Part shown: positions 12,251 to 59,413 of the stretch, in pieces
Position numbering within the stretch: the first letter of the stretch is position 1
How the letters are laid out: each line of letters begins with the position of its first letter
From: an uncultured delta proteobacterium
GTDB lineage: Bacteria > Desulfobacterota > BSN033 > UBA1163
DNA: 64,000 nt
Direction of reading: 5' to 3'
Assembly (NCBI GenBank): GCA_963820625.1
Contig: CAWGAV010000020.1
Span: forward strand, 138-64,137
Notes under the pieces: model-generated
What the model was told of the DNA's origin: nothing
The model's database searches: none
The model's input: only the letters and a program-made list of their open reading frames with translations
Program-made: the position numbers and the translations under genes

Positions 12251-12378
12251 CGGAGTCATTGGGTCTTTGAGTCTTTAAATCTCTTAAAGAATTGGACGCA
12301 AAGACGCAAAGACGCTAAGACGCAAAGACGAAATGATAGGTTAATCCAATGACTTAATCACTTAATGACCTAATTATG
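12251..12378. repeat. nested intergenic palindrome built from tandem oligomers (GTCTTTG / CAAAGACG units; GTCATTGG / CCAATGAC outer arms)
   Basis: gagtcattgggtctttgagtcttt ... gacgcaaagacgcaaagacgctaagacgcaaagacg ... ccaatgacttaatcacttaatgacc. Confidence 0.65.
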
Positions 12379-12649: not shown

Positions 12650-13984
12650 ATGCCTCACCTTGAATATCCTCGGCTTGTCTTATCAGACCCTGATGGGAAT
12701 ATCTTTGATCATCCCTCTCTGAAACTATCAGGTCGATCTGGAGATCGGTTCCTCCTACCCCATCCATCAGAATTGGTGCCTCTACCTAAAGGGAGTCAAC
12801 TCTTTACTTTGCCCGGAAGGATTCCAATTGGATGGGATGAAGAAAAAAGATCTTTTGTCTCTTCGAGAAAAGTGAATTTGGGGGAGAGAGAGGTGGAATG
12901 TACAGCGGTTGCTGCTTTCCTCCCACCAGGATATATCCGCACTCTTCTCCCTGCAACACAACTGATACCAAAAGCGCCCCCCCTTCCACTTTGGGCTTAT
13001 AGTGCCGTGGGTTGGAAAGACGGGAAATTTTGGGCGCCAGGACTATTCCTTGACACCAATCCTCATTGGAATCCAAAATATTTTGGGAACGATCGCCTTT
13101 TAAAAAGAAAGGTTCAACCGTATCTTAGTAAAAACCCAAAGAATCGCCTCCTTCGACAACTTTCCAGGTGTGCTTTGGAATATCACTGCTTTGCAGCAAA
13201 AAATGTTTTTTTTCGAAGATGGGAATGTCCCTTACCGACTTCCCCTTCGTGCAATGCAGATTGTTTGGGTTGCATTTCCCTTCAACCCTCTGAATGTTGC
13301 CCGGCCTCTCAAGAGAGGATTAATTTTGTTCCGACAGTAAACGAAGTTGTGGGCGTTGCCTTGCCCCATCTGGAAGAAGCAGAGGATGCGGTCGTCAGTT
13401 TTGGTCAGGGCTGTGAGGGAGAACCGTTGATTCAATGGAGGCTTTTGGAAAATTCGATACGCAGGCTTCGAGAAAAGACTGATCGGGGAACGATCAATCT
13501 CAATACCAATGGGAGTTTTCCAGAGCGGTTGACAAAACTGTGTGACGCAGGGCTTGACAGTGTTCGTATCACGCTAAACAGTCCCCATTTAAAATTCTAC
13601 AAACGCTATCACAGACCAAAGGGATATTCCTTCGGGGAAGTGGTGGATTCCTTGATTCAGGCGAAAGGAAAAGGGACCTACACTTCGATTAATCTCCTCG
13701 TCTTCCCAGGGTTCACAGACAGGGAGGAAGAAGTGGAGGGATTGATAGACCTGATCAGGAAAACGAGCCTCGATCTCATCCAGATGCGGAACCTCAACAT
13801 TGATCCAGACCTCTATCTTAAGACCATGGGAAGAGGTGAAGGGGTAGGTATCTCTAAGATGATCGATGTTCTCAAGAAGGAATTCCCTTCTCTCCAATTC
13901 GGTTATTTCAACCGCACCAAAGAATCCTTTTACTCCAGCGGAAGTAATGGAGACCGAATTCGAGGTGCTGAGTTCGGAGTTTAG
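12650..13984 (+). CDS. radical SAM domain protein
   Basis: CX3CX2C motif (CNADCLGC) followed by a TIM-barrel-like region (GQGCEGEPL, NLNTNGS, RITLNS). The C-terminal residues run into a GTTCGGAG repeat. Confidence 0.75.
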   Translation: MPHLEYPRLVLSDPDGNIFDHPSLKLSGRSGDRFLLPHPSELVPLPKGSQLFTLPGRIPIGWDEEKRSFVSSRKVNLGEREVECTAVAAFLPPGYIRTLLPATQLIPKAPPLPLWAYSAVGWKDGKFWAPGLFLDTNPHWNPKYFGNDRLLKRKVQPYLSKNPKNRLLRQLSRCALEYHCFAAKNVFFRRWECPLPTSPSCNADCLGCISLQPSECCPASQERINFVPTVNEVVGVALPHLEEAEDAVVSFGQGCEGEPLIQWRLLENSIRRLREKTDRGTINLNTNGSFPERLTKLCDAGLDSVRITLNSPHLKFYKRYHRPKGYSFGEVVDSLIQAKGKGTYTSINLLVFPGFTDREEEVEGLIDLIRKTSLDLIQMRNLNIDPDLYLKTMGRGEGVGISKMIDVLKKEFPSLQFGYFNRTKESFYSSGSNGDRIRGAEFGV

Positions 13985-14071
13985 CCTGCCTTCGCCGAAG
14001 CGGCTACGCGCAGGCAGGAGTTCGGAGAATTGAAACCATGGACTCCGAACTCCGAACTAATAATTCGGAGC
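13969..14071. repeat. intergenic composite: GAGTTCGGAG units flanking a cctgcc...ggcagg hairpin, then CTCCGAAC units
   Basis: Read directly. Same unit family as 2074-2300 and 29242-29320. Confidence 0.65.
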
Positions 14072-14081
14072 TATTTTAAAG

Positions 14082-14774
14082 ATGGATGAGCGGCAATTTA
14101 GAGAGGGAGTAAAAGCTGCCCTGCCCATCGTTTTAGGGTACCTTCCAGTTGGGGTGGCTTTTGGCTTATTGGCTCGGAAAAATGGGCTCACTACATTCGA
14201 AGTAGGATTGATGAGCCTGCTTGTCTACGCTGGAGCGAGTCAATTCCTTGCTATTGAAATGATTTCCAAGGGGATGACTTGGCTTCCCATCGTCCTCGCC
14301 ACCTTTTTCATCAACCTGAGACATTTTCTCATGAGTTCTAACCTTTCCCTCTATCTTAAAAACACCAGGCTTCCTCTTCTTGGTTTTCTTTCGGCACAAT
14401 TGACAGATGAGTCCTTCGCTGTGGCTATTTCCAATCTCCACAATGTGAAAAATAGACCTTCGTACCTCTTCGGCCTCCAAATCACTTCTCACCTCGCTTG
14501 GGTGACAGGATCTATTGGAGGTGCCTTATTCGGCCCTTTCATCAAAATTTCGGAATATGGCCTTCCCTTTGCCCTTCCGTCTCTCTTCATCTGCCTCCTC
14601 ATGCTTCAACTTAAGAGTTTCCATCATTTTTGGATTATGGTTGTTGCAGGGATTTCCTCTCTATTCTTCAAGTGGGCATTTCCCGGCAATTGGTATATCT
14701 TACTCGTTGCTCTTCTTGCTGCAGGGATAGGGGTGATAAAAGCTCAAGGGTCAAAGCTCAAAGCTGAAAGCTGA
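14082..14774 (+). CDS. azlC: AzlC-family branched-chain amino acid exporter subunit
   Basis: ALPIVLGYLPVGVAFGLLA...YAGASQF pattern, multi-TM, followed by an azlD-like gene. Confidence 0.75.
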   Translation: MDERQFREGVKAALPIVLGYLPVGVAFGLLARKNGLTTFEVGLMSLLVYAGASQFLAIEMISKGMTWLPIVLATFFINLRHFLMSSNLSLYLKNTRLPLLGFLSAQLTDESFAVAISNLHNVKNRPSYLFGLQITSHLAWVTGSIGGALFGPFIKISEYGLPFALPSLFICLLMLQLKSFHHFWIMVVAGISSLFFKWAFPGNWYILLVALLAAGIGVIKAQGSKLKAES

Positions 14775-14803
14775 AATCATGATTAAGAGAAGCAGATAGA
14801 AAT

Positions 14804-15127
14804 ATGAGAGAAGAAATGCTGGCGATTATTGTCGGGATGGCGGTTGTGACCTTTTTACCCCGCTTCCTCCCACTGGCCTTTTTGACCAGGTGGGTCATTC
14901 CTGAAAGGGTTAAAATGGGATTGGGTTATATTCCGATCGCCATTTTGAGTGCGATCGTTTTCCCCATCCTTTTTTTCAATGGAGGGGGAAAGGTTGAAAT
15001 TCAACCTCATTACCTTCTCTCTGCTATTCCTGTTTTTTTCTTTGCCTGGAAGGTGAAGAGCCTTTGGGCTTCGGTCGTCCTGGGAATGTTGATTTATTGG
15101 GGACTTGGCTTGTTATTGGGTTATTGA
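14804..15127 (+). CDS. azlD: AzlD-family small membrane protein
   Basis: 107 aa, 3-4 TM, immediately downstream of azlC (AIIVGMAVVTFLPRFLP). Confidence 0.65.
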   Translation: MREEMLAIIVGMAVVTFLPRFLPLAFLTRWVIPERVKMGLGYIPIAILSAIVFPILFFNGGGKVEIQPHYLLSAIPVFFFAWKVKSLWASVVLGMLIYWGLGLLLGY

Positions 15128-15167
15128 GTCCAAAAGACGCAACGACACTAGGACGCAAAGACGCTTT

Positions 15168-15809: not shown

Positions 15810-15995
15810 AAAAAGAGAGCTTTGAAAAACTACTTTACGCTCTCTTGATTACACAGATTTTTTCTCTATTTTCAATGTATTCCTGTCTGCGCCTGCCTGC
15901 GGTAGGCAGGGCAGGCAGGTCTTATCAGTGTCATCGTTTCCTAATCTATGTAATCAGAGATTGCTGGGCTTTTTCAGAAATCTCAAAAATTCCCC

Positions 15996-16042: not shown

Positions 16043-16096
16043 CTCTAATAAAGAGGCTCAAAGTTCAAAGCTCAAAGGGGGAAAAAGGAAAATAAA

Positions 16097-16723
16097 ATGG
16101 AAGACAAAAAAGAACTGACTTCAACTCAACAGAGAGTCTTTGATTTTTTGAAGGATTATCTTCGGGAAAAAGGGTTTCCGCCAACGCTTCGTGAAATTGC
16201 TTCTCACTTTGGATTAAAAGGGCCTAAGGCGCCACAAAAAACCCTGAGCATCCTTGAGAGGAAGGGGTACATCCGTAAAGTCCCGGGAGGTTCGAGGGCG
16301 ATTGAAATTTTAAGCTACCCACAGTTCAGTCTTACCCAAATACTTCCAATCCCCATTGTAGGAAGAGTGAAAGCAGGTGAACCCATTCTCGCCATCGAGA
16401 ATATCGAGGGTTACATTAACTTCGATCGGACTCTTGTCTCTTCAGGGGATGTCTTTCTCCTTCGGGTCCAGGGAGAGAGCATGATCGATGCTCACATTCA
16501 GGACGGAGATTTTGCCCTGGTGAAGCCGCAGCCCAATGCAGAAAACGGTGAGATTGTCGTGGCCTTGATCGAAGATGAGGCAACGATCAAGAGGATCTTT
16601 AAAAAGAGGGACTTAATTCGGCTTGAACCAGCCAATCCCAAGATGGAACCCATTGTCGTCAAAAAAGGAGAGAAAAAGGTCATCATTGTTGGAAAGGTAA
16701 TCGGGATTTTTAGAAAACTTTAA
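16097..16723 (+). CDS. lexA: LexA repressor (paralog 2)
   Basis: GFPPTLREIASHF HTH, Ala-Gly site (RVKAGEP), QGESM serine and IKRIF lysine. Confidence 0.9.
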   Translation: MEDKKELTSTQQRVFDFLKDYLREKGFPPTLREIASHFGLKGPKAPQKTLSILERKGYIRKVPGGSRAIEILSYPQFSLTQILPIPIVGRVKAGEPILAIENIEGYINFDRTLVSSGDVFLLRVQGESMIDAHIQDGDFALVKPQPNAENGEIVVALIEDEATIKRIFKKRDLIRLEPANPKMEPIVVKKGEKKVIIVGKVIGIFRKL

Positions 16724-16812
16724 TGGCTGATAGCCAATGGCGAATGGCTTATAGCTAATAGCTTATTGTTAAGTCCTTTATTCCGTTTACCATCAGCCAT
16801 AGGCTATCTGCT
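16724..16812. repeat. intergenic hairpin with tandem-oligomer arms (GGCTGATAGCC / GCTATCAGCC type) between lexA-2 and dinB
   Basis: atggctgatagccaatggcgaatggcttatagctaatagc ... ccatcagccataggctatctgc. Confidence 0.6.
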
Positions 16813-17979
16813 ATGTGCAATTCTATGGACGATCGAATTATACTTCATATAGACATGGATGCTTTTTTTATTTCGGTGGAACAGAGGGATAATCCCGCAC
16901 TAATGGGAAAACCTGCGGCGGTTTGTGGCTCTCTTTCCCGAAGTGTGGTCACTTCAGCCACCTATGAGGCAAGGCCTTTTGGAATTCGAGCAGGGATGTC
17001 GACCCAGGAGGCAAAAGGGCGTTGTCCCCAGTTGATTCTTGTGGAGGGGAACCATTCGAAATATACGGAAACCGCAGCCCGAATTTTTTCTATTCTGAAA
17101 GGACAGACGCCCCTGGTGGAGATCGCCTCCATTGACGAGGCCTATCTCGATATCACCCAATCCCTGCTCCTCTTCCATTCTCCTCTCCTCATTGCCCAAT
17201 CGATCAAAGAACGAATTGGGGGAAGTGAACAATTGACCTGTTCCATCGGAGTGGCTCCGAATAAACTTCTTGCCAAGTTGGGAAGTCGTCTAAAAAAACC
17301 TGATGGTTTGGTGATAATTCCAAAAGAGGAGGTGGAGGAGATATTAAAGGATCTTCCCGTATCGAAACTCAATGGGATTGGTCCAAAGCTTGGAGAGGCG
17401 TTAAATTCGATAAGCATATTTACTTGTGGACAATTGGGAAAGTTTCCGGTTTCTGTTTTAACCAAAAGGTTTGGTGTCATCGGCGAGAGACTCCACGAGA
17501 TGGGTTTGGGATGGGAAGATAGTCCGGTCGTACCTTTTGATGAGGAGGAGGATACCAAATCAATGAGCCACAGCGTCACCCTCGAAGAGGATACCTCTGA
17601 CCCAAATATCCTGAGAAAAGTTTTGCTTCAACTTTCCGAAAAGGTTTCCAGAAGGATGAGGAGGGAAAAGTTCTATGGGAAGAGGATTGCCATTACGGTC
17701 CGTTATTCAGATTTTTTTACCTTCTCAAAACAAAGGACCCTTTCTAAATGGATGAATAGCGGTAATGAAATATTTCAACACGCCTTTGAGATTTTTGAAT
17801 CGATTCCCCATCCAAAACCAATTCGTCTCCTCGGAGTGGGGATTTCTCAATTGAAAAAAGAGTGGTGCCAGTTGGATCTTTTTGAAAGGAAGGATAAAAA
17901 GGAAACCCTTCTCAAAGCAATGGATCGAATCAATGAACGATTCGGAGATTGGACCTTAACCTGGGCAGGGCTTTATTGA
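16813..17979 (+). CDS. dinB: DNA polymerase IV (Y-family)
   Basis: ILHIDMDAFFISVEQRDNP...SIDEAYLDIT...GVAPNKLLAKL...LNGIGPK. Likely start at Met 16825. Confidence 0.9.
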   Translation: MCNSMDDRIILHIDMDAFFISVEQRDNPALMGKPAAVCGSLSRSVVTSATYEARPFGIRAGMSTQEAKGRCPQLILVEGNHSKYTETAARIFSILKGQTPLVEIASIDEAYLDITQSLLLFHSPLLIAQSIKERIGGSEQLTCSIGVAPNKLLAKLGSRLKKPDGLVIIPKEEVEEILKDLPVSKLNGIGPKLGEALNSISIFTCGQLGKFPVSVLTKRFGVIGERLHEMGLGWEDSPVVPFDEEEDTKSMSHSVTLEEDTSDPNILRKVLLQLSEKVSRRMRREKFYGKRIAITVRYSDFFTFSKQRTLSKWMNSGNEIFQHAFEIFESIPHPKPIRLLGVGISQLKKEWCQLDLFERKDKKETLLKAMDRINERFGDWTLTWAGLY

Positions 17980-18028
17980 GTGCGAAATGCAGAGTGCGGA
18001 ATGCGGAATGGGGTGAGATAAAGAACCA

Positions 18029-29242: not shown

Positions 29243-29320
29243 TAATGAGTTCGGAGTTCAGAGTTCGGAGTGAAAAAATACTTCAAGGTAAAAAACTCCG
29301 AACTACGAACTCATCACTCC
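29242..29320. repeat. intergenic hairpin with GAGTTCGGAG / CTCCGAAC tandem arms
   Basis: gtaatgagttcggagttcagagttcggagtg ... aactccgaactacgaactcatcactcc. Confidence 0.65.
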
Positions 29321-29722: not shown

Positions 29723-30591
29723 ACATGCTGAAGATTGGAATTCCGAAAGGAAGTCTGGAGAATGCCACCATTGAGCTTTTTAGGAAGTCGGGCTGGAAAA
29801 TCTCGGTGAGCTCTCGAAGTTATTTTCCCATCGTGGATGATGATGAGATCCGGTGCACCTTGGTCAGGGCCCAGGAGATGTCGAGGTTTGTGGAGATAGG
29901 GACCCTGGATATGGGGCTGACCGGGAAGGATTGGATTTTGGAAAATGGCTCTGACATCGTGGTCGTTCAGGATTTGATCTACTCCAAGACCAGCGCCTCT
30001 CCTGCGCGGTGGGTTTTGGTCGTAGCCGAAGATTCTCCCATCCATCAATTGAGGGATTTGGAAGGGAAAAAGATCTACACCGAACTCGTCAATTTCACCA
30101 AACGATACTTTGCCGAGCGAAGCATCAAAATCTATGTGGAGTTCTCTTGGGGGGCCACAGAGGGGAAGGTCATTGAAGGATTGTGCGATGCCGTGGTTGA
30201 AGTCACGGAGACCGGGAGCACGTTGCGGGCCAATAAACTCCGTATCGTTGAAGAACTCTTGCAGACCAATACCCAATTGATTGCCAATCGCGAATCCTAT
30301 CAAGATCCATGGAAAAGGGAAAAGATTGAGCAGATCTCGCTTCTTCTTCGGGGAGCCCTCCGAGCAGAGGGAATGGTTGGGCTCAAAATGAACGTCTCGG
30401 CCAATGACCTCAAGAGTGTGATTGAGATTCTTCCCAGCATCACCGCCCCCACGGTTTCTAATCTCTTCCAGACCGATTGGTTTTCTGTGGAGACCATTAT
30501 TTCTGAGAAGGTCGTCCGGGAACTCATTCCGAGATTGCAGAAACGAGGAGCAGTAGGGATCATCGAATATCCCCTCAACAAAGTCATCTGA
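29719..30591 (+). CDS. hisG: ATP phosphoribosyltransferase (long form)
   Basis: [23 protein letters not shown]...DLIYSKT...TGSTLRAN...C-terminal regulatory domain. Start is either GTG 29719 or ATG 29725. Confidence 0.9.
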
Positions 30592-30690
30592 GGTTAAGGT
30601 TTAGGCTAAGGGTGAGAAAAAACCTTAACCTTAACCTTAACCTTAACCTTAACCTTAACCTTAACCTTAACCTTAACCTTAACCTCAGCC
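30592..30690. repeat. near-perfect hexanucleotide microsatellite (AACCTT) x about 11 (30621-30685), preceded by a partly complementary arm (gaggttaaggtttaggctaagggtgag)
   Basis: Read directly. It lies between the convergent hisG and methyltransferase genes. Tracked ORFs 30584..30772 and 30606..30833 are its (RL)n/(KV)n translations. Confidence 0.9.
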
Positions 30691-31977
30691 TCAACCTTTT
30701 TGGAGTAAACTGACCACTTCCATGTGGAAGGTCTGGGGGAACATATCGATGAGGCCGAGCCTTTGGAGGCAATATCCCCTTTCAGAGAAGAGTCGGAGAT
30801 CCCGCGAGAAGGTGGTGGGTTCGCAAGAAACATAAATGATTTTTTGAGGTTTCAATCTGACCACCTGATCTAAGATCGTCTTGCACCCTGTCCTGGGAGG
30901 GTCGAGGATGATGAGATCAGGTTTTTTTCTTTTCCAACTCATCAAAACATCTTCTACCCTTCCTTGAATGAAATCGCAATTTCTGATCCCGTTTCTTTCT
31001 GCATTGAATCGGGCATCCTCTATGGCCATCCTATTCTCTTCGATCCCCAAGGCTTCCTTCGCCGAAGTGGCTAATGGGAGAGTTAGGTTTCCCACGCCGG
31101 CATAGAGGTCGAGGACCCTGGACTCCTTATTCACTTCTGAGAATTGAAGAACGGTTTGAATCAAAGTTTGATTCTGCCCCGGATTGACCTGAAAAAAACT
31201 CCCTGGTGAGATTCGAAACTTGAGATTTCTTTCTTCTCTCTCCTGACCCAAAGGGATTGTAAAGTTCAAAGAAGGGTCACCGGATAAATTTAATCCATCT
31301 TTTCTTGCTATAGCGATACCCCGTAGGATCGGTTGATTCTGAAGAAACTCTCTTGCGAAATACTCGATCCGTTGATCATATGAATGAGGATGAAATAAAA
31401 GCACCCCCCTCTCTTCCTCTTGGGACACATTGATCTCGATCTCTTCCATGGGTAATAAGGCGGCTAATGCCTCTCGAAGTTTTCGGATGATCTGATTCAC
31501 CAGAGGATGTGAGATGGGACAGTGATCGATATCCACAATTTGATGGGACCTTTCTTGGTGGTAGCCCATCGCTTTTCCCTTCACCTTCAGTTGTATCCTA
31601 ACTCGATAGTCATAAGGTTTAGGCGAAGAGGTTACGCTGATGAAAGGGATTTCCTTCAGCCTCCCTATTCTTTGAAGGATCCCCCCTAAAATTTCTTTTT
31701 TTAATTCTCCATGAGTCGAATAGTCGATGTGTTGCCACTGGCAGCCACCACAACTCCCAAAGTATGGACAGGGAGGATTTACTCTCCAAGGAGATGGTTC
31801 GACGACCTGGATTAACCTTCCCATCGAGTATTTCTTCTTCTCTTCTGTCATCTCAATCCATGCCTCATCGCCGGTCACGGTATAGGGGATGAAGACCACT
31901 TTGCCACGGATCCGACCCACTCCATATCCTTTAAAAGCTACGGAATCAATATGGACCTTAACTTTTCCCATTATCAT
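30691..31977 (-). CDS. 23S rRNA (uracil-5)-methyltransferase, RumA/RlmD family
   Basis: N-terminal TRAM-like domain, 4Fe-4S Cys motif CPYFGSCGGCQWQH, and SAM motif VLDLYAGVGNLTLPLA. The C-terminal residues may be repeat-derived. Confidence 0.8.
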   Translation of the reverse strand: MIMGKVKVHIDSVAFKGYGVGRIRGKVVFIPYTVTGDEAWIEMTEEKKKYSMGRLIQVVEPSPWRVNPPCPYFGSCGGCQWQHIDYSTHGELKKEILGGILQRIGRLKEIPFISVTSSPKPYDYRVRIQLKVKGKAMGYHQERSHQIVDIDHCPISHPLVNQIIRKLREALAALLPMEEIEINVSQEEERGVLLFHPHSYDQRIEYFAREFLQNQPILRGIAIARKDGLNLSGDPSLNFTIPLGQEREERNLKFRISPGSFFQVNPGQNQTLIQTVLQFSEVNKESRVLDLYAGVGNLTLPLATSAKEALGIEENRMAIEDARFNAERNGIRNCDFIQGRVEDVLMSWKRKKPDLIILDPPRTGCKTILDQVVRLKPQKIIYVSCEPTTFSRDLRLFSERGYCLQRLGLIDMFPQTFHMEVVSLLQKG

Positions 31978-36452: not shown

Positions 36453-37181
36453 ATGAAAGGAGTGATTTTGGCGGGAGGTTTAGGAACTCGACTCCACCCA
36501 TTGACAAAGGTGACCAACAAGCACCTTCTTCCTGTCTACGATAAACCGATGATTTATTATCCGATTCAGACCCTGATTAATGCTGGCATCGATGACATCC
36601 TGATTGTCACGGGCGGAAACAATGCCGGAGATTTTTTAAGGTTGTTGGGAAATGGAAAGGAGTTCGGGCTCAAACATATCAACTACACCTACCAAGAAGG
36701 AGAAGGTGGCATTGCGGAAGCCCTTAGGTTGGCAGAGTTCTTCGCTTCAGGGGAGAAGATCTGTGTGGTATTAGGAGACAACATCATTGAGAAAAACATT
36801 CAAAAGGCAGTAGAAAATTTTCGAAAACAAAAAGAAGGTGCCAAGATATTGTTAAAAGAAGTCCCTGATCCAAAGCGGTTTGGAGTCCCCGAGTTGAAGG
36901 GAGATCGGATCGTCCGGATTGAAGAGAAGCCCAAGGAACCCAAATCCCAATATGCCGTGATCGGAATCTATCTTTTTGATCAAGAGGTTTTTAACATCAT
37001 CAAGACCCTCAAGCCCTCTGACCGAGGGGAATTAGAGATCACCGATGTGAACAATCGGTATATTGAAAAAGGGCTGATGACCTGGGATATTTTAAAAGGG
37101 TGGTGGACCGATGCAGGGACTTTTGAGTCCTTGCTTCGCGCAAACCAATTGGTTTCCAAAACAGGTTCCAATAACCTTTAA
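36453..37181 (+). CDS. rfbA: glucose-1-phosphate thymidylyltransferase-type sugar nucleotidyltransferase (short form)
   Basis: MKGVILAGGLGTRLHPLTKVTNKHLLPVYDKPMIYYP. Lies in the dTDP-rhamnose gene cluster. Confidence 0.8.
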   Translation: MKGVILAGGLGTRLHPLTKVTNKHLLPVYDKPMIYYPIQTLINAGIDDILIVTGGNNAGDFLRLLGNGKEFGLKHINYTYQEGEGGIAEALRLAEFFASGEKICVVLGDNIIEKNIQKAVENFRKQKEGAKILLKEVPDPKRFGVPELKGDRIVRIEEKPKEPKSQYAVIGIYLFDQEVFNIIKTLKPSDRGELEITDVNNRYIEKGLMTWDILKGWWTDAGTFESLLRANQLVSKTGSNNL

Positions 37182-37184
37182 TTA

Positions 37185-37440
37185 TTAAAATTCGAAGCAC
37201 GAAATCCCTGCCTGCGCCGAGGCTTCGGTAGGCAGGCGAATTTCGAAACAAGCACGAATTTCCAAAATACAAATGGCCTAAACAAAATCTTTTTGAATTT
37301 TGATATTTGGATTTGGGATTTGTTTCGGATTGATTCCTTCGGAATGCTTCGCGCGATATTCGGATTTCGGATTTTAAGGATGTTTGTTGATTCCGATGAT
37401 GTTGGACTAAGAAAGAGACGATAAGTCTACCGGAGGGGAG
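37185..37440. repeat. cluster of tandem-oligomer hairpins plus a cctgcctgc...gcaggcagg-type palindrome
   Basis: cgaagcacgaaatccctgcctgcgccgaggcttcggtaggcaggcgaatttcgaaac... and tttggatttgggatttgtttcggatt...ttcggatttcggatttt. Confidence 0.6.
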
Positions 37441-37442
37441 CG

Positions 37443-37898
37443 ATGATACACGGGGTGAGGACGAAATTATTGAGGGTGATCCCGGATGAACGGGGAAGGG
37501 TGATGGAGATCCTCAGGGCGGATGATGACCTGTTTCTGAAGTTCGGCCAGGTGTATATCACTACCACCTATCCCCAAGTGGTGAAGGCTTGGCACTACCA
37601 TAAGGTCCAAACCGATCACATCTGTGCCATCGAAGGGATGATCAAACTGGTCCTTTATGATCCGCGAGAAGGTTCTCCGACCAAAGGGGAGATTAACGAG
37701 TTCTTCATTGGAATCCACAACCCTCTGCTGGTTCAAGTGCCCAATGGGATCTATCATGGATGGAAATGCATCAGCGAGGAGGAAGCAATCATACTCAACG
37801 TTCCAACGGAGGTCTACGTTTACGTCGGACCAGATGAATACCGCCTTCCACCCCATGGGAGGGATGTTCCTTATGATTGGTCAAGAAAGGATGGATAA
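37443..37898 (+). CDS. rfbC: dTDP-4-dehydrorhamnose 3,5-epimerase-family cupin
   Basis: 151 aa, RmlC-like cupin pattern (DERGRVMEI...QVYITTTYPQVVKAWHYH...GIYHGW). Cluster context supports it. Confidence 0.7.
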   Translation: MIHGVRTKLLRVIPDERGRVMEILRADDDLFLKFGQVYITTTYPQVVKAWHYHKVQTDHICAIEGMIKLVLYDPREGSPTKGEINEFFIGIHNPLLVQVPNGIYHGWKCISEEEAIILNVPTEVYVYVGPDEYRLPPHGRDVPYDWSRKDG

Positions 37899-38080
37899 TC
37901 AGAAGCACCAAATTCCAAATGTCAAATGACAAACAAATTCCAATGGTCAATATCCAAAATTCCAAACAGAATGGTTTCGGAAATGGGCATCGGGTAGGGG
38001 AGACTTTAACATCCCTTTTAGGCGCTGTGCGCTTTGCGCTGTGCACCATGCCCCATGTAATGGATTGGTCGGGGTGAGAG

Positions 38081-39097
38081 ATGAAAATTTTGGTGACAGG
38101 TGGTTGCGGGTTCATCGGAAGTAACTTCATCCGTTATTTTTTAAAATCCTACCCGGATTATTCTCTGATCAACGTCGATAAATTGACCTACGCCGGAAAT
38201 TTAGAAAACCTTTCCGATCTCTCTCATTCCCCCCGTTACCATTTCATCAGAGGGGACATTGCCGATGCCCCTCGAATGGAAGAATTGATCAGCAAAGGCG
38301 TGGAGGCCATCGTTAACTTCGCCGCTGAATCCCATGTGGACCGGTCCATCGAAGATCCCAGTGCCTTTATGAAAACCAATGTCTTTGGAACCTCCGTCCT
38401 TCTCGAAGCGGTTCGGAAAGTTTTCCCCAAACAGCAGATCCGTTTCCTTCATATCTCCACCGACGAGGTCTACGGCTCCCTGGGCAACACCGGAGCTTTC
38501 ACTGAGGAAACTCCCCTGGCGCCCAATAGCCCTTATTCCGCAAGTAAAACGGCGGCGGATATGTTGGTCAGGGCTTATCATCATACTTATAGGATTCCCG
38601 CCCTCATCACCCGATGTTCCAATAATTATGGGCCTTATCAATTTCCCGAAAAACTGGTTCCATTGATGATTTCGAATGCCATCGAAGATAAGGAGTTACC
38701 CATTTATGGCGATGGGATGCATGTTCGGGATTGGATTTATGTCAAAGATCACTGTCGGGCGTTAGATGTGGTGTTGCACCGAGGCAAAGAAGGGGAGATT
38801 TACAATATAGGGGGGAGGAGTGAGAAGCCAAACTTGACGGTGGCAAAAACTATTTTGGATCGGCTGGGAAAATCCCATTCGCTGATCCGGTTTGTCACCG
38901 ATCGGCCAGGCCATGATCGTCGTTATGCCATTGACTTCTCTAAGATTGAGAGAGAGTTGGGATGGAAACCTTCTGTCTCCTTTGAAGAGGGGATCGGCCT
39001 GACCGTGGAATGGTACCAGACCCATCGGGAATGGTGGAAAAAGATCAAGACGGGGGAGTATTTGGACTATTACAACCGGATGTATAAAGATCGTTAA
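38081..39097 (+). CDS. rfbB: dTDP-glucose 4,6-dehydratase
   Basis: MKILVTGGCGFIGSNF, YSASKTAADML (YxxxK), and DRPGHDRRYAID. Confidence 0.9.
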   Translation: MKILVTGGCGFIGSNFIRYFLKSYPDYSLINVDKLTYAGNLENLSDLSHSPRYHFIRGDIADAPRMEELISKGVEAIVNFAAESHVDRSIEDPSAFMKTNVFGTSVLLEAVRKVFPKQQIRFLHISTDEVYGSLGNTGAFTEETPLAPNSPYSASKTAADMLVRAYHHTYRIPALITRCSNNYGPYQFPEKLVPLMISNAIEDKELPIYGDGMHVRDWIYVKDHCRALDVVLHRGKEGEIYNIGGRSEKPNLTVAKTILDRLGKSHSLIRFVTDRPGHDRRYAIDFSKIERELGWKPSVSFEEGIGLTVEWYQTHREWWKKIKTGEYLDYYNRMYKDR

Positions 39098-39183
39098 AAC
39101 GGAATTGAGAATTGAGGAATTTAGGAATTGAGGAATTAAATTCCTAAATCCCTAAATCCCTAAATTTCTGAATTCCTCAATTG
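39098..39183. repeat. long imperfect hairpin made of GAGGAAT(T) / (A)ATTCCT-type tandem units
   Basis: ggaattgagaattgaggaatttaggaattgaggaatt-aa-attcctaaatccctaaatccctaaatttctgaattcctcaattg. Confidence 0.75.
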
Positions 39184-39195
39184 AAGATAGATGAG

Positions 39196-40087
39196 ATGAA
39201 ACGAATATTATTGGTGATTGGAGCAAAGGGAATGCTGGGAAGAGATCTGATGGGTGTTCTCCATGCCTCTCTTCCCAATGACGAAATCATCGGATGGGAT
39301 ATTGAAGAAATCGATATTCAAAAAGAAGAGGATACCGTCTTTAAAATTGAAAAACTCCGACCAGATATCGTGGTCCATATTGCTGCCTATACGGATGTAG
39401 ATGGGTGTGAATTGGATGAAGAGAAGGCCTTTGCCGTCAATGCAGAGGGAACAAGGCATGTGGCCCTGGCCGCCTCGAGATGCCGGGCAAAAATGGTTTA
39501 TCTGAGCACCGACTATGTCTTTAATGGAAATAAAAGAGAACCCTATTTGGAGAGTGATTCCCCCCATCCCCTGAATGTCTATGGTCGTTCCAAATTGAAG
39601 GGGGAGCAATATGTTCAAGAATGGGTGAAAGATGCCCTGATCATTCGGACCCAATGGCTCTATGGAAGATATGGAAAAAATTTTGTGACCTCGATTCTCC
39701 AACAGGCGAGAGAGAAGAAGAGTTCTTTCCATTGTCAACGATCAGATTGGCTCACCCACTTACACTGCCGATTTGGCTAAAGCCATTTCCGTTCTGATTC
39801 AATTTGACGCCCAGGGGATTTTTCATGTGGCGAACAGTGATCTCTGTACGTGGTATACCTTTGGCCAAGCGATCTTGAAGCTTTCAGGGATGGATAAGGT
39901 GAGGGTGATTCCCATTTCTTCGAAGGAGCTCGGTCGTCCAGCGGTCCGACCTTCTTATTCTGTTCTCAACTGTCAGAAGTTGAAAAAGGAGACCGGTTTG
40001 GCTTTGCGACCATGGTCCGAGGCTCTGAAGGATTACCTTGCTACCTATCGCCTGACAATCGGCAGACCAGGCAGTCAAGGGAGATAA
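39196..40087 (+). pseudogene. rfbD: dTDP-4-dehydrorhamnose reductase interrupted by one frameshift (about 39720)
   Basis: N-terminal part: ILLVIGAKGMLGRDL...YLSTDYVFNG...YGRSKLKGE. After the shift: LSIVNDQIGSPTYTADLAKAI...RPSYSVLNCQKL. Span length mod 3 = 1. May be a sequencing artefact. Confidence 0.8.
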
Positions 40088-42220: not shown

Positions 42221-42265
42221 ATTTCGGAATTCGAATTGCGGAATGCGGAATTAAATTCGAAAATC
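42221..42265. repeat. tandem-oligomer element (GCGGAAT / CGGAATT units)
   Basis: atttcggaattcgaattgcggaatgcggaattaaattcgaaaatc. Related units at 17980-18012 and 43079-43110. Confidence 0.6.
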
Positions 42266-43077: not shown

Positions 43078-43130
43078 ATAATTTCGGATTTCGGAATGTG
43101 GATTGCGGAGTTAGAGCTTCAATCTAAAAT

Positions 43131-44054
43131 TTGAAATCTGAAATCCAAAATCTAAAAATGATCGCTTATATCATATACTTACTTCTAAGAGTGTTCAGCT
43201 TCTTCATTAATCTTCTCCCCGAGGGTTTCGCCCTCTGGTTGGGAAGGCAATTGGGGAGAATGGTTTTTTATCTGGATCGAGGGCATCGGAAGGTTGCCCT
43301 TGAGAATCTCCACACCGCTTTTGGTGAGGAGAAGCCTGAAAGAGAGATCTATGCGATTGCTCAGAGGACCTTTCAAAACCTGGGGATGATGGTCATCGAG
43401 TTCTTCCGGATTCCCGGATTGGATAGGGAGGATTTTAAGGAAAAAGTGAGTGTGGAGGGACTGGATGAGGCGCTGAGGCTTCTTGAGAAGAAGAAAGGAG
43501 CCCTTCTCCTCATCGGTCATTTCGGGAATTGGGAATTGATGGGTTTGATGTCAAAGGTGATCGGAAATCCAATCATGGTGATTGCCAAACCCATGAAAAA
43601 GAATAAATGGGTGGATCATTTTATCACAAAGATTAGAAGGGCGGCAGGTCTGGAAGTCATTTCCAATGTCAATGCGAGCCGGAAAGTGATGAAGGCGCTT
43701 TCTCAAAATCGGGTGGTTGGAATCTTGATTGATCAGAGGGCGAAACGAAGCGAAGGGATCTGGGCTGACTTTTTCGGGAGAAAAGCACCCACTACCCCTG
43801 GTTTAGCCGTCCTGGCGATGAAGACGGGTGCTCCTGTTTTACCGGTTTTTATGGTTCGGAATGGATTTCAAAAACATCGTCTCCTGATCCAGGAACCGCT
43901 TGAATTGATCCATACCGGTAATATCAAGAAGGATGTGGAAGCCAATACCCAACTCTTCAACCAGACCCTTGAGTCAATGATCCGCCAGTACCCTGATCAA
44001 TGGTTCTGGGTGCATCAGAGATGGGAGAGAAAGAAGAAGGTTCATCATAGGTGA
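43131..44054 (+). CDS. lipid A biosynthesis (LpxL/HtrB-type) lysophospholipid acyltransferase
   Basis: HFGNWELMG catalytic HX4E-like motif, N-terminal TM, and PDQWFWVHQRW tail. Start possibly at Met 43158. Confidence 0.75.
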   Translation: MKSEIQNLKMIAYIIYLLLRVFSFFINLLPEGFALWLGRQLGRMVFYLDRGHRKVALENLHTAFGEEKPEREIYAIAQRTFQNLGMMVIEFFRIPGLDREDFKEKVSVEGLDEALRLLEKKKGALLLIGHFGNWELMGLMSKVIGNPIMVIAKPMKKNKWVDHFITKIRRAAGLEVISNVNASRKVMKALSQNRVVGILIDQRAKRSEGIWADFFGRKAPTTPGLAVLAMKTGAPVLPVFMVRNGFQKHRLLIQEPLELIHTGNIKKDVEANTQLFNQTLESMIRQYPDQWFWVHQRWERKKKVHHR

Positions 44055-47638: not shown

Positions 47639-47699
47639 GGTGGAAAGTGGAGGGTAGAGAGTGGAATTTTTTATCCACTATCCACATTCTACTTTCCAC
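47639..47699. repeat. imperfect hairpin with GTGGAAAG-type arms in the divergent promoter region
   Basis: ggtggaaagtggagggtagagagtggaa-tttttt-atccactatccacattctactttccac. Confidence 0.6.
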
Positions 47700-47726
47700 T
47701 TTTAAAATTGAAGGAGGTGGTGGGTA

Positions 47727-54366: not shown

Positions 54367-55137
54367 ATGAAGAAGTTACTTTTTGGAACAATGCTTTTGG
54401 CGTTGGTAATTGTAGTTCCTATTCCAACGATGGCACAGGTAGATATACGCATTAGTTTTCCTCTCCCACCACCCATCGTATTTGCCGCACCACCAGAGGT
54501 GATAGTGATACCTGAGACGTATGTCTACGTTGCCCCTGACATTGATGTAGACCTCTATTTCTGGAATGGTTGGTGGTGGCGTCTATGGGAAGGTCGTTGG
54601 TATCGCTCACGTTATTATAACCGGGGCTGGGGTTATTATAACAATGTTCCAAGTTTTTATTTTGATGTAGACCCAGGTTGGAGAGGATACTACAGAGATC
54701 ATAATTGGTACGGGCATCGGTGGAACTATGAACGGATTCCTCACCAACGACTTCAACAGAACTGGAGCAGTTGGGAAAAGAGCAAATATTGGGAAAGGCA
54801 AAGAACTTGGGGTGTCCAGAGCTATCAACCTCGACCACAACAACAGAGACAGGAACTAAGACAACAAAGGCAACAGCAATATCAACAGAGGCCTGAGGTT
54901 CAGCAACACCAGCAACAAAGACGACAGCAACAAAAACAACCCCAGGTTCAGACAACCCTCAAGGTTCAGACAACAGAGAACAACCTCAGGAGTTCAGCAG
55001 CAACAGACAACAACCTCAGGAGAAAGTTCAGCAGCAACAAGACAACAACCTCAGGAGAAAGTTCAGCAGCCGCAAAGACAAGAGCAAAAACCTCAGGTTC
55101 AGCAACCACAACACTCTCAGCCTCAAGGAAAACCTGA
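54367..55137 (+). CDS. secreted Trp/Tyr/Arg-rich protein with Gln-rich repetitive tail
   Basis: Signal peptide LLALVIVVPIPTMAQ. WNGWWWRLWEGRWYRSRYYNRGWGYY region. The tail contains 33-35-nt tandem repeats, so its frame is ambiguous (an alternative frame ends at 55164). Confidence 0.5.
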   Translation: MKKLLFGTMLLALVIVVPIPTMAQVDIRISFPLPPPIVFAAPPEVIVIPETYVYVAPDIDVDLYFWNGWWWRLWEGRWYRSRYYNRGWGYYNNVPSFYFDVDPGWRGYYRDHNWYGHRWNYERIPHQRLQQNWSSWEKSKYWERQRTWGVQSYQPRPQQQRQELRQQRQQQYQQRPEVQQHQQQRRQQQKQPQVQTTLKVQTTENNLRSSAATDNNLRRKFSSNKTTTSGESSAAAKTRAKTSGSATTTLSASRKT

Positions 55138-59129: not shown

Positions 59130-59413
59130 ACTCCACCATTAAACAAAGCAAAGAGCATAGCGCTTAGCGCATAGCGAAAAAGATACCCGATAGATTTACA
59201 GGGTGATGAAATAACCTATCTTATCGTTATTCTGAGTAAGGCGAAGAATCTCAACTACTAAAATATCTGGGTTTTACGGTTTTAAAACCAGACTGACTTC
59301 CTGGAATTTGTCATCTCTCATCTCGCAAAATACAAGACCTTTAAATGGGTGACCCTCTCAGCACCTTGAACTCATCCTAAAATCGTCATCAAAAGTATCA
59401 AATTTCGGGTCAG

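Follow-up and report, generated by a model that had tools for sequence, protein, structure and literature searches.

What is the long imperfect hairpin that occupies the space between rmlB and rmlD in an uncultured delta proteobacterium, and how does it relate to the many similar structures, built from other short words, in the same genome? The hairpin lies at positions 39101-39182 of a 64,000-nucleotide stretch of contig CAWGAV010000020.1 (the window; C20:138-64137) in assembly GCA_963820625.1, hereafter G000, a 71% complete metagenome-assembled genome (MAG) of 2.34 Mb, 35 contigs and 45% G+C to which, judged by RmlB, uncultured MAGs of Syntrophaceae/Thermodesulfobacteriota are closest. We believe that this hairpin, like most others, is probably a gene-less member of a superfamily of foldback cassettes whose full form carries a gene of the PF05635 family, the '23S rRNA intervening-sequence protein'. 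As we picture it, a full cassette would consist of about 4 units of a 7- or 8-nt word, a ribosome-binding site and a PF05635 gene of ~125 amino acids, and about 4 complementary units, the whole squeezed in where one gene stops and its neighbour starts.

The focal hairpin sits in an rml operon (rmlA, 36453-37181; rmlC-like, 37443-37898; rmlB, 38081-39097; rmlD, from 39196), beginning 3 nt past the stop of the rmlB-like gene at 39097 and ending ~13 nt ahead of the rmlD ATG at 39196. Its 5′ arm (39101-39137; Tandem Repeats Finder [TRF], RNA folding and arm alignment) comprises ~4.8 degenerate units of GGAATTGA/GGAATTTA, and its 3′ arm (39137-39182; TRF) ~5.8 units of TAAATTCC/TAAATCCC, with a loop of ~3 nt between them. 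The predicted RNA fold of -30 kcal/mol compares with -16.0 +/- 3.2 for 200 dinucleotide shuffles (z -4.34; 0/200 as good), in agreement with the original prediction of a hairpin at 39098-39183. The stem is a succession of 5-7-bp helices with a mismatch at every unit boundary; it is A+T-rich and lacks a U-tract, and the DNA that follows reads GAAGATAG. An Rfam search of the window returned no family match and a PF05635 search of the window zero matches, and no gene lies in the focal loop because the loop is merely ~3 nt long.

The same word, GGAATT[GT]A, nevertheless brackets PF05635 genes in two relatives, at cassettes L179 (genome G419) and L218 (genome G416). The upstream arrays of both cassettes align with the focal 5′ arm, and the focal 3′ arm CCTAAATCCCTAAATTTCTGAATTCCT matches the array that follows the L218 PF05635 stop (CCTAAATCCCTAAATTTCTAAATTCCT) at 26 of 27 positions, with the unit variants in equal order; across the alignment of the focal arms with the arms of gene-bearing cassettes (A1), mean column identity is 71%. 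A second locus in the window behaves similarly: the left arm TAATAGTTCGGAGTAATGAGTTCGGAGTTCGGAG of the hairpin that begins at 2075 (2075-2108, 34 nt) is identical to the upstream arm of the GAGTTCG-word PF05635 cassette L215 in G416. The focal element is accordingly filed as a putative gene-less derivative of a foldback cassette of the PF05635/intervening-sequence type, and not as a full member, because its ~3-nt loop holds no gene while the gene is present elsewhere in G000 and accompanies the same word in relatives.

G000 itself contains five PF05635 matches, three of them full genes and two decayed. The full genes lie between one stop and the next start with word arrays alongside, and both copies on contig C7 have complementary pairs: C7:57350-57727 lies between (CTGGATA)n and (CCAGTAT)n and C7:62620-63036 between (GAAGGAC)n and (GTCCTTC)n, with word arrays also beside the third gene at C29:1115-1426. 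One decayed gene, a C-terminal remnant at C1:42341-42541, is enclosed in a 404-nt (GAGGTT)n...(AACCTC)n hairpin, whose word family also includes nine hairpins that lack a gene; the other remnant (C23:14814-14915) lies between CACGTGTCCG and CGGACACG. PF05635 occurs in 29 of 31 genomes of the bacterial family, with up to 21 copies, and in 1 of 14 control genomes. Many copies are found within a few hundred bases of contig ends (e.g. G415:C57:10-297, G403:C42:1-231, G411:C239:83-388), which suggests that the cassettes break short-read assemblies; PF05635 copy numbers are therefore probably underestimated.

Among the 89 PF05635 genes of the bacterial family with enough flank to be analysed, 70 are bracketed by an inverted repeat (z >= 3), and around 47 TRF detects a pair of mutually complementary arrays (30 with period 7, 10 with period 8; median 4.2 units per arm, mode 4), the right array beginning a median of 13 nt past the PF05635 stop. 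Words could be assigned in these 47 cassettes, whose hosts are relatives and so not independent. Protein identity averages 0.685 for pairs with the same upstream word (n=40) as against 0.309 for pairs with other words (n=1041; permutation p < 0.0002), and 30 of the 44 protein pairs that are >=60% identical share a word; one word, CGCATAG, is carried by six cassettes. Each PF05635 protein subtype has its own word. In 31 of 40 same-word pairs the flanks 250-450 nt off are unrelated, including two copies within a single genome (L217, L230), and because same-word cassettes thus sit at unrelated sites, gene and arms are copied to new sites as one unit. The words recur among the intergenic arrays of G000, where 17.6% of 289 carry the exact cassette word of another genome (2.0 +/- 1.9% with letter-shuffled words). 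Loss of the gene by recombination between direct arrays of the complementary word (word, complement, gene, complement; L218/L215) was considered and set aside as a general route; only 7 of the 47 cassettes have this layout, no more than with reversed words as control.

Similar arrays pervade G000, as the original prediction expected. Intergenic TRF rows number 271 at period 7 against 8 in a first-order shuffle, 120 against 16 at period 8, and 82 against 4 at period 14; array density is 212 per 383 kb between genes and 72 per 1962 kb within them, a tandem heptanucleotide excess like that of the short tandemly repeated repetitive (STRR) sequences, and word arrays deep within G000 genes are nearly all chance 2-copy repeats. 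The 327 non-redundant intergenic arrays of period 7 or 8 use 149 canonical words, a diversity in keeping with the earlier contention that no single mobile sequence is involved; the commonest words are GAGTTCG (18), CGCATAG (16), TGGAATAA (15) and CAAATGT (13), where ~0.3 recurrences are expected. A reverse-complement array lies within 400 nt of 79 of 284 period-7 arrays (7-9 with reversed or complemented words as controls) and of 42 of 199 period-8 arrays (2-3). Pairs of this kind define 68 hairpin loci, whose median length is 85 nt, with arms of ~4 units and loops of 3 to >300 nt; roughly one third of arrays form hairpins, the one-armed remainder being twice as common.

Gene positions for all spacer and stop statistics come from a crude caller of our own based on open reading frames (ORFs) and codon scores. 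On these positions, at most 6 nt separate the upstream stop from the array in 60 out of 201 instances (24 expected with uniform placement), as had been proposed, and there is no excess near start codons (22 vs 24 expected); at least 10 ORFs run on into their array and end at a stop codon within its first unit. The density of paired arrays is 0.37 per kb in spacers between co-directional genes, 0.21 between convergent and 0.07 between divergent ones. TTTT is found within 12 nt downstream of 4 of 56 hairpins, so that U-tracts are indeed often missing, and generic terminator-like sites between 28 and 48 kb are not enriched (28 vs 24.9 in shuffles). The earlier view that these are not ordinary Rho-independent terminators therefore holds: the 4/56 T-tracts, and at the focal locus an A+T-rich stem without a U-tract, rule out an intrinsic terminator.

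How have the arms evolved? Mirror-image units of the two arms match no better in their real order than when permuted (observed 373, permuted 397), and because mirror units do not covary, neither recent fold-back copying nor pair-wise hairpin selection, the latter part of the original prediction, can have shaped them; both were rejected. Units differ by ~26% whether adjacent or not (p=0.15), and this lack of any greater likeness between neighbours shows that the arrays are not newly made by slippage. Cores of 4-5 nt (TGGAA, AAA, GCA..AG) are 0.86-0.99 conserved, with the remaining positions at 0.53-0.8, and the distribution of unit number has its mode at 4 and is not geometric. Chirality is fixed, the word arm coming first in 49 of 49 hairpins of nine families (for example TGGAATAA 12/0, AAGGTT 9/0, CAAATGT 6/0, GAGTTCG 6/0, AAATCCG 5/0 and CGCATAG 4/0, the AAATCCG loci having been separated by eye), and one-armed arrays show no strand bias relative to transcription (p=0.10). 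Together, the fixed chirality, conserved cores, peak in unit number, absence of covariation and lack of a wobble preference argue for families of related elements with constrained words, and not for words made afresh at each site or stems kept base pair by base pair. Two further ideas did not survive: whole-element copy-and-paste including loops was rejected, loops being unrelated outside the AAATCCG family, and stop codons in three frames as a general rule for the first arm were dropped as inconsistent, by eye, over the main words.

Relatives show that the hairpins are not specific to this genome, contrary to what was originally supposed. The order rmlA-rmlC-rmlB-rmlD-... is retained in 35 of 35 relatives, while three of its spacers span 14-690 nt and hold hairpins of differing words, or none; the conserved, promoter-like spacer downstream of rmlD (g4g5, ~150 nt) has no word hairpin in any of the 35. 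A CGCATAG-word hairpin with the loop GTTAAATCTTTTTAC precedes rmlB intact in L004, L008, L010, L012, L017, L020 and L035, and some hairpins are thus old. It differs by whole units in one arm between L010, L012 and L020, the kind of variation in unit number that the original prediction had proposed to seek between strains, and the window retains its right arm only, (GCGCTGT)x3.3 at 38022-38044 (TRF). Compared with G246, the nearest syntenic genome (~83% nucleotide identity in genes), an orthologous array may have one unit more or fewer, be accompanied by an additional inverted array, or consist of another word altogether. More widely, (GAGTTCG)x3 with <=2 mismatches occurs in 46 of 401 sampled genomes of the phylum, in at least 10 families, with forward and reverse counts about equal and the reversed-word control nearly silent; other sampled families equal or exceed G000 in period-7 arrays, each with its own word list, and a genome of 72% G+C has almost none.

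Two loci of genome G199, from another family of the phylum, deserve separate mention. At L091 (G199:C126:1819-2319), (GCGTTCR)n and (GAGTTCG)x4 lie inside an apparent histidine kinase HATPase domain, between ...RLDVK and EISVADTGKGI..., a possible in-frame insertion in a coding region. At L087 (G199:C70:18469-18969), three distinct four-unit word arrays alternate with a conserved stretch of ~22 nt (TATCAGGAGGGTTGGATATACC), forming a small repeat-spacer-like series.

A smaller palindrome often interrupts the arrays. The REP-like (repetitive extragenic palindromic) family CCTGCC[TA]...[TA]GGCAGG has 88 intergenic copies in G000, mostly of 19-20 nt (in the window at 13985-14018, 15892-15910 and 37207-37236), and often interrupts a word array precisely where two units meet; the joined flanks are periodic in 11% of copies and in 1.2% of random sites. 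Relative to L010, L008 has a clean 19-nt insertion of it.

Shared words, bracketing of PF05635 genes, coupling of protein to word, and differing contexts lead us to regard the hairpins as families of copied elements later altered by slippage of units. Copies with shrunken or absent loops, i.e. the hairpins, together with single arms far outnumber the gene-bearing copies. Once inserted, an element changes further: slippage adds whole units to one arm or removes them, an arm is lost, or other small palindromes such as CCTGCC...GGCAGG insert into the arms. The original prediction invoked a generative mechanism, slippage or a dedicated enzyme: slippage does act, as in the whole-unit differences between L010, L012 and L020 and in the array at 16056-16077 (3 units, 4 in G246), but an origin in situ at each locus is not supported, given the fixed chirality, shared variant order and the PF05635 words; and the enzyme has a counterpart in PF05635 as a candidate protein partner, although generation of words in situ is unsupported. 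On transcription of an operon, the arms would form a long imperfect intercistronic stem of ~28-40 bp without a U-tract. RNase III cuts such a stem in the 23S rRNA cassette described below and G000 has an RNase III gene (rnc), so the stems may be intercistronic RNase III substrates or decay barriers that process or insulate polycistronic mRNA, rather than terminators.

To our knowledge, PF05635 includes no known transposase; its protein is the only candidate partner for copying. A more specific role is conceivable, though we would sooner bet against it than for it: a homopentamer might read ~4-5 tandem units, one 7-nt unit per subunit and each subtype matched to its word, as an address for copying of the cassette or for handling of its RNA. 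The one-unit-per-subunit model is attractive because arms have 4-5 units and the PF05635 relatives 2GSC and 2RLD were each deposited with five chains. PF05635 proteins are Avd-like four-helix bundles, pentameric in crystals (PMC10053308, PMC4990558); no RVT_1 reverse transcriptase, the diversity-generating retroelement (DGR) link for an Avd-like protein, is present in the assembled 71% of the genome.

Several observations weigh against descent of the hairpins from PF05635 cassettes, or against a role for their RNA. At <=1 mismatch, the overlap between G000 and cassette vocabularies is only 42% vs 30 +/- 7%; the largest G000 families (TGGAATAA, CAAATGT, GCGGAAT) have no gene-bearing copy among the 47 word-assigned cassettes; and G018 is heptamer-rich (39 period-7 rows per 80 kb), yet has one PF05635 match. 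The loop of one gene-less copy alone holds a recognisable gene remnant, and the loops of gene-less copies are otherwise unrelated except in the AAATCCG family, some containing other dispersed repeats. No target-site duplication, transposase or recombinase could be tied to the elements; of the features of miniature inverted-repeat transposable elements, inverted arms are present and a gene-bearing relative exists, and target-site duplications were not seen at hairpin loci. The coupling of protein to word could be plain hitch-hiking within one mobile unit. Finally, selection at the RNA level is weak: wobble-compatible mismatches (G-U as opposed to A-C) number 56 vs 45, which is not significant, transversions dominate, and the sense strand is only slightly the more stable, at 35 loci vs 21 (p=0.017).

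What else might account for the hairpins? Each might have arisen in situ by slippage of a chance 7-8-nt seed and inverted duplication, with foldable products selected and families only apparent. The large vocabulary (149 words in 327 arrays), the separate word lists of heptamer-rich genomes in all of which period 7 dominates, the differing unit numbers of orthologous arrays, the inverted array at 12253-12374 that is extra relative to G246, and the many one-armed arrays would all fit, and slippage over a polymerase footprint was, as cited in PMC4692102, proposed for heptamer excess by Mrazek 2007. We nevertheless consider an origin in situ unlikely, as it accounts poorly for a chirality fixed in all families, for identical arms and variant order across genomes and around PF05635 genes, for top words that recur 13-18 times against ~0.3 expected, and for (GAGTTCG)n in at least 10 families of the phylum with a reversed control near zero; the ~26% difference between units regardless of adjacency (p=0.15), the 4-5-nt cores, and the non-geometric peak at 4 units also speak against it. 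Alternatively, the arrays could serve as platforms to which nucleoid or global regulatory proteins bind in double-stranded DNA, the hairpin potential being incidental. Tandem heptads and octads are known targets of ribbon-helix-helix proteins, omega and MetJ among them. Conserved cores with variable linker positions, arms without mirror covariation and the absence of a clear strand bias are as expected of binding sites, and the architecture matches that of the Geobacter class 1-3 sites (opposite-strand pairs, 3-5 units of 7-9 nt, variable spacing; PMC2700814). But the arrays adjoin stop codons and are sparsest in divergent, promoter-bearing spacers, the promoter-like g4g5 spacer is free of them in 35 relatives, more than 100 words would demand many regulators, and orthologous spacers have other words or none, all of which make binding platforms quite improbable.

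Selection of hairpins as stabilisers of mRNA 3′ ends or intercistronic regions, or as terminators without a U-tract, in the manner of REP sequences and bacterial interspersed mosaic elements (BIMEs), would leave PF05635 genes as passengers that insert occasionally. Many relatives are hairpin-free at the same spacers, down to 14-43 nt, convergent spacers are not enriched, mismatches lack a wobble preference, one-armed arrays outnumber hairpins two to one, and insertion of passengers would not by itself couple protein to word; we thus regard such selection as improbable, despite the preference for co-directional spacers beside stops, the stable stems (focal z -4.3), the slightly more stable sense strand (p=0.017), the lack of enrichment of canonical terminators, and the filling of the same spacer by different words across genomes, as though a hairpin were required. 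The original prediction also suggested a search for REP-associated tyrosine transposases (RAYTs) or IS200-like enzymes. G000 does have six PF01797 matches, the hairpins are extragenic palindromes, and one of the 88 copies of the true REP-like family CCTGCC...GGCAGG lies 86 nt from a Y1 transposase fragment (C23:23325-23549); yet all six Y1 transposase genes lack flanking word arrays, three of them end in unrelated inverted repeats of 16-28 nt, the word arms share no REP consensus, and the gene found within arms is PF05635 and not a Y1 transposase. Mobilisation of REP/REPIN-type elements by RAYT or IS200-like HUH transposases is thus a most improbable origin.

Descent from PF05635 foldback cassettes can also be set beside known systems, the closest parallel being the ORF-bearing intervening sequences (IVSs) in the 23S rRNA of Leptospira and Coxiella burnetii, in which a PF05635 (S23p) gene likewise occupies the loop of a long stem of terminal inverted repeats and the ORF is likewise decayed in some copies. 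In Coxiella, RNase III cuts the terminal stem, whose loop contains the S23p ORF (PMC4990558); the stem measures 28 bp, about four heptamers. The G000 cassettes differ in lying between protein genes of operons (the focal one in the rml operon) and not in helix 9, 25 or 45 of 23S rRNA, in having arms that are visibly tandem 7-8-nt words, in being mostly gene-less, and in falling into word families that number dozens in each genome; their excision by RNase III is putative. A second parallel is found in Geobacter metallireducens, whose class 1-3 'putative global regulator binding sites' Aklujkar et al. (2009, PMC2700814) interpreted, untested, as sites for IHF/HU. Like the G000 arrays, these have 3-5 tandem units per strand and an opposite-strand partner at variable distance, are intergenic and multi-copy with several classes per genome, and come from a host formerly classed as a deltaproteobacterium; their words, GTTGCTYN, TCTCCGTS and MTYCTGA, are different, and no link to PF05635 was noted there.

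REP/BIME elements of E. coli share with the hairpins a location between co-transcribed genes or at operon ends, away from promoters, as well as stem-loops in mRNA and a role as insertion hot spots, but a REP is a single palindrome of 20-40 nt with one consensus, mobilised by RAYT, whereas the G000 elements have arms of tandem words, many families, and PF05635. Foldback (FB) transposons of Drosophila, for which transposition has been demonstrated, have arms of short tandem sub-repeats that vary in number, a variable or absent loop, and genes in some copies only; their sequence, host and kilobase size are unrelated, and movement of the G000 elements is putative. Heterocystous cyanobacteria reportedly have STRR heptamer repeats, a description credited to Mazel in 1990, in which small dispersed repeat (SDR) mini-elements are said to be embedded, as credited to Elhai in 2008. 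Arrays of GGGAATC and GGGGAYT are found in Xanthomonas and Nostoc (Rehm 2015, PMC4692102), and an excess of heptamers was known earlier (PMC4692102, PMC4679880). All these arrays resemble ours in their intergenic heptamer excess, occasional inverted pairs, length variation between relatives and inserted small palindromes (CCTGCC...GGCAGG in G000); they differ in having been described as simple repeats or G-quadruplex formers, with neither a partner gene nor family-wise chirality reported.

Sixteen loci in the window had originally been listed as sharing one two-armed architecture. Besides the focal one, nine are indeed two-armed, including a weak hairpin at 42221-42265 (TRF, fold), and six or seven are one-armed. 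GAGTTCG-family hairpins lie at 2075-2295 (arms 2075-2121 and 2264-2295; -92 kcal/mol; a 140-nt loop full of other small palindromes), at 13969-14071, where the left arm is broken by the 34-nt CCTGCC...GGCAGG palindrome at 13985-14018 and relatives have a hairpin with the word GGGTTCAA, and at 29247-29320, beginning 4 nt past a stop codon. At 12253-12374 there are three arrays, (GAGTCTTT)3, (GACGCAAA)4.5 and (AATGACTT)3.4 (TRF, fold), of which the middle one is an extra inverted copy because G246 has the outer pair only. The hairpin at 16721-16812 (TAATAGC/TGATAGCC arms; -35.8 kcal/mol) occupies its entire spacer, where G246 and G404 have hairpins of other words; that at 43081-43157, (ATTTCGG/GATTGCG)n ... 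(AATCTAA)x5.3, contains G-U pairs, folds at -23.5 kcal/mol on the plus and -14.1 kcal/mol on the minus strand, and belongs to a family also found in the rmlC-rmlB spacer of L003, L016, L023 and L030; and that at 47639-47702, (GTGGAAAG)n ... (TCCACTT)x4.1, folds at -36 kcal/mol. The AAATCCG/CGAAATC-family element at 37185-37440 carries a CCTGCC...GGCAGG insertion and occurs in relatives too, its family being the sole one in which the loop is conserved as well.

One-armed arrays are (AAAGCTC)x5.4 at 14739-14776 (TRF), at an ORF end; a GACGCAAA-like array at 15128-15165, between convergent genes; (GCTCAAA)x3 at 16056-16077, in the 5′ leader of the gene at 16097; (TGCGGAA)x4.3 at 17978-18010, immediately 3′ of a stop codon; an array at 37895-37975 with no complement nearby (array and fold check); and (GCATAGC)x3.1 of the CGCATAG family at 59155-59176 (TRF). 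No other array in the window comes near (AACCTT)x13 at 30621-30698 in length or regularity (94% matches); its word is the complement of the AAGGTT family, and it is placed between a gene that ends at 30591 and a minus-strand gene at 30691-31977, whose 3′ end is at 30691.

The genes that flank the focal hairpin are both on the plus strand. The upstream gene (38081-39097) encodes a dTDP-glucose 4,6-dehydratase-like protein (RmlB; Pfam PF16363/PF01370) with orthologues in 35 relatives. The downstream rmlD (RmlD_sub_bind, 39196-40087) is read in two frames, 39196-39780 and 39773-40087, that overlap at 39773-39780 and both match PF04321, at profile positions 3-171 and 204-286; relatives have a single gene of ~297 amino acids, and the two-frame reading reflects either a frameshift or an assembly error. 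Elsewhere in the window, two genes at 14082-15127 within the segment 13938-15166 are present in G403 and missing at the orthologous site of G246 and G404, where only a word hairpin is found, so that the segment is a two-gene indel with hairpins at its bounds. The divergent spacer at 15810-15990 holds two or three other dispersed short repeats (~40-70 nt), with many copies 80-97% identical in G000, G246, G403, G124 and G011. The 18-35-nt tandem repeats at 54936-55081 in the ORF at 54367-55137 are coding repeats unrelated to the word arrays.

A literature search found no paper connecting PF05635 with heptamer arrays or with paired repeats of the Geobacter type; new here are the Thermodesulfobacteriota case, the coupling of protein to word, the test of different contexts, and the homology of specific gene-less hairpins at the level of their arms. 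The excess of tandem heptamers between bacterial genes has been reported since 1990 (cyanobacterial STRR, Xanthomonas, Geobacter, Beggiatoa) with neither origin nor partner assigned, and the problem is now testable: gene-less elements and PF05635 cassettes have arms and words in common, protein subtypes track words, and the unit is found at unrelated sites. For annotation, the elements occupy a sizeable share of the operon spacers of this bacterial family and supply stop codons for upstream genes, and they should not be called terminators. If PF05635 proteins do read the words, this would explain why the period is universally 7 nt, why arms most often have 4 units, why cores of 4-5 nt are conserved and why protein and word are coupled; an orphan family, made up of relatives of DGR Avd that stand alone, would thereby gain a function, and STRR and other heptamer repeats an origin.

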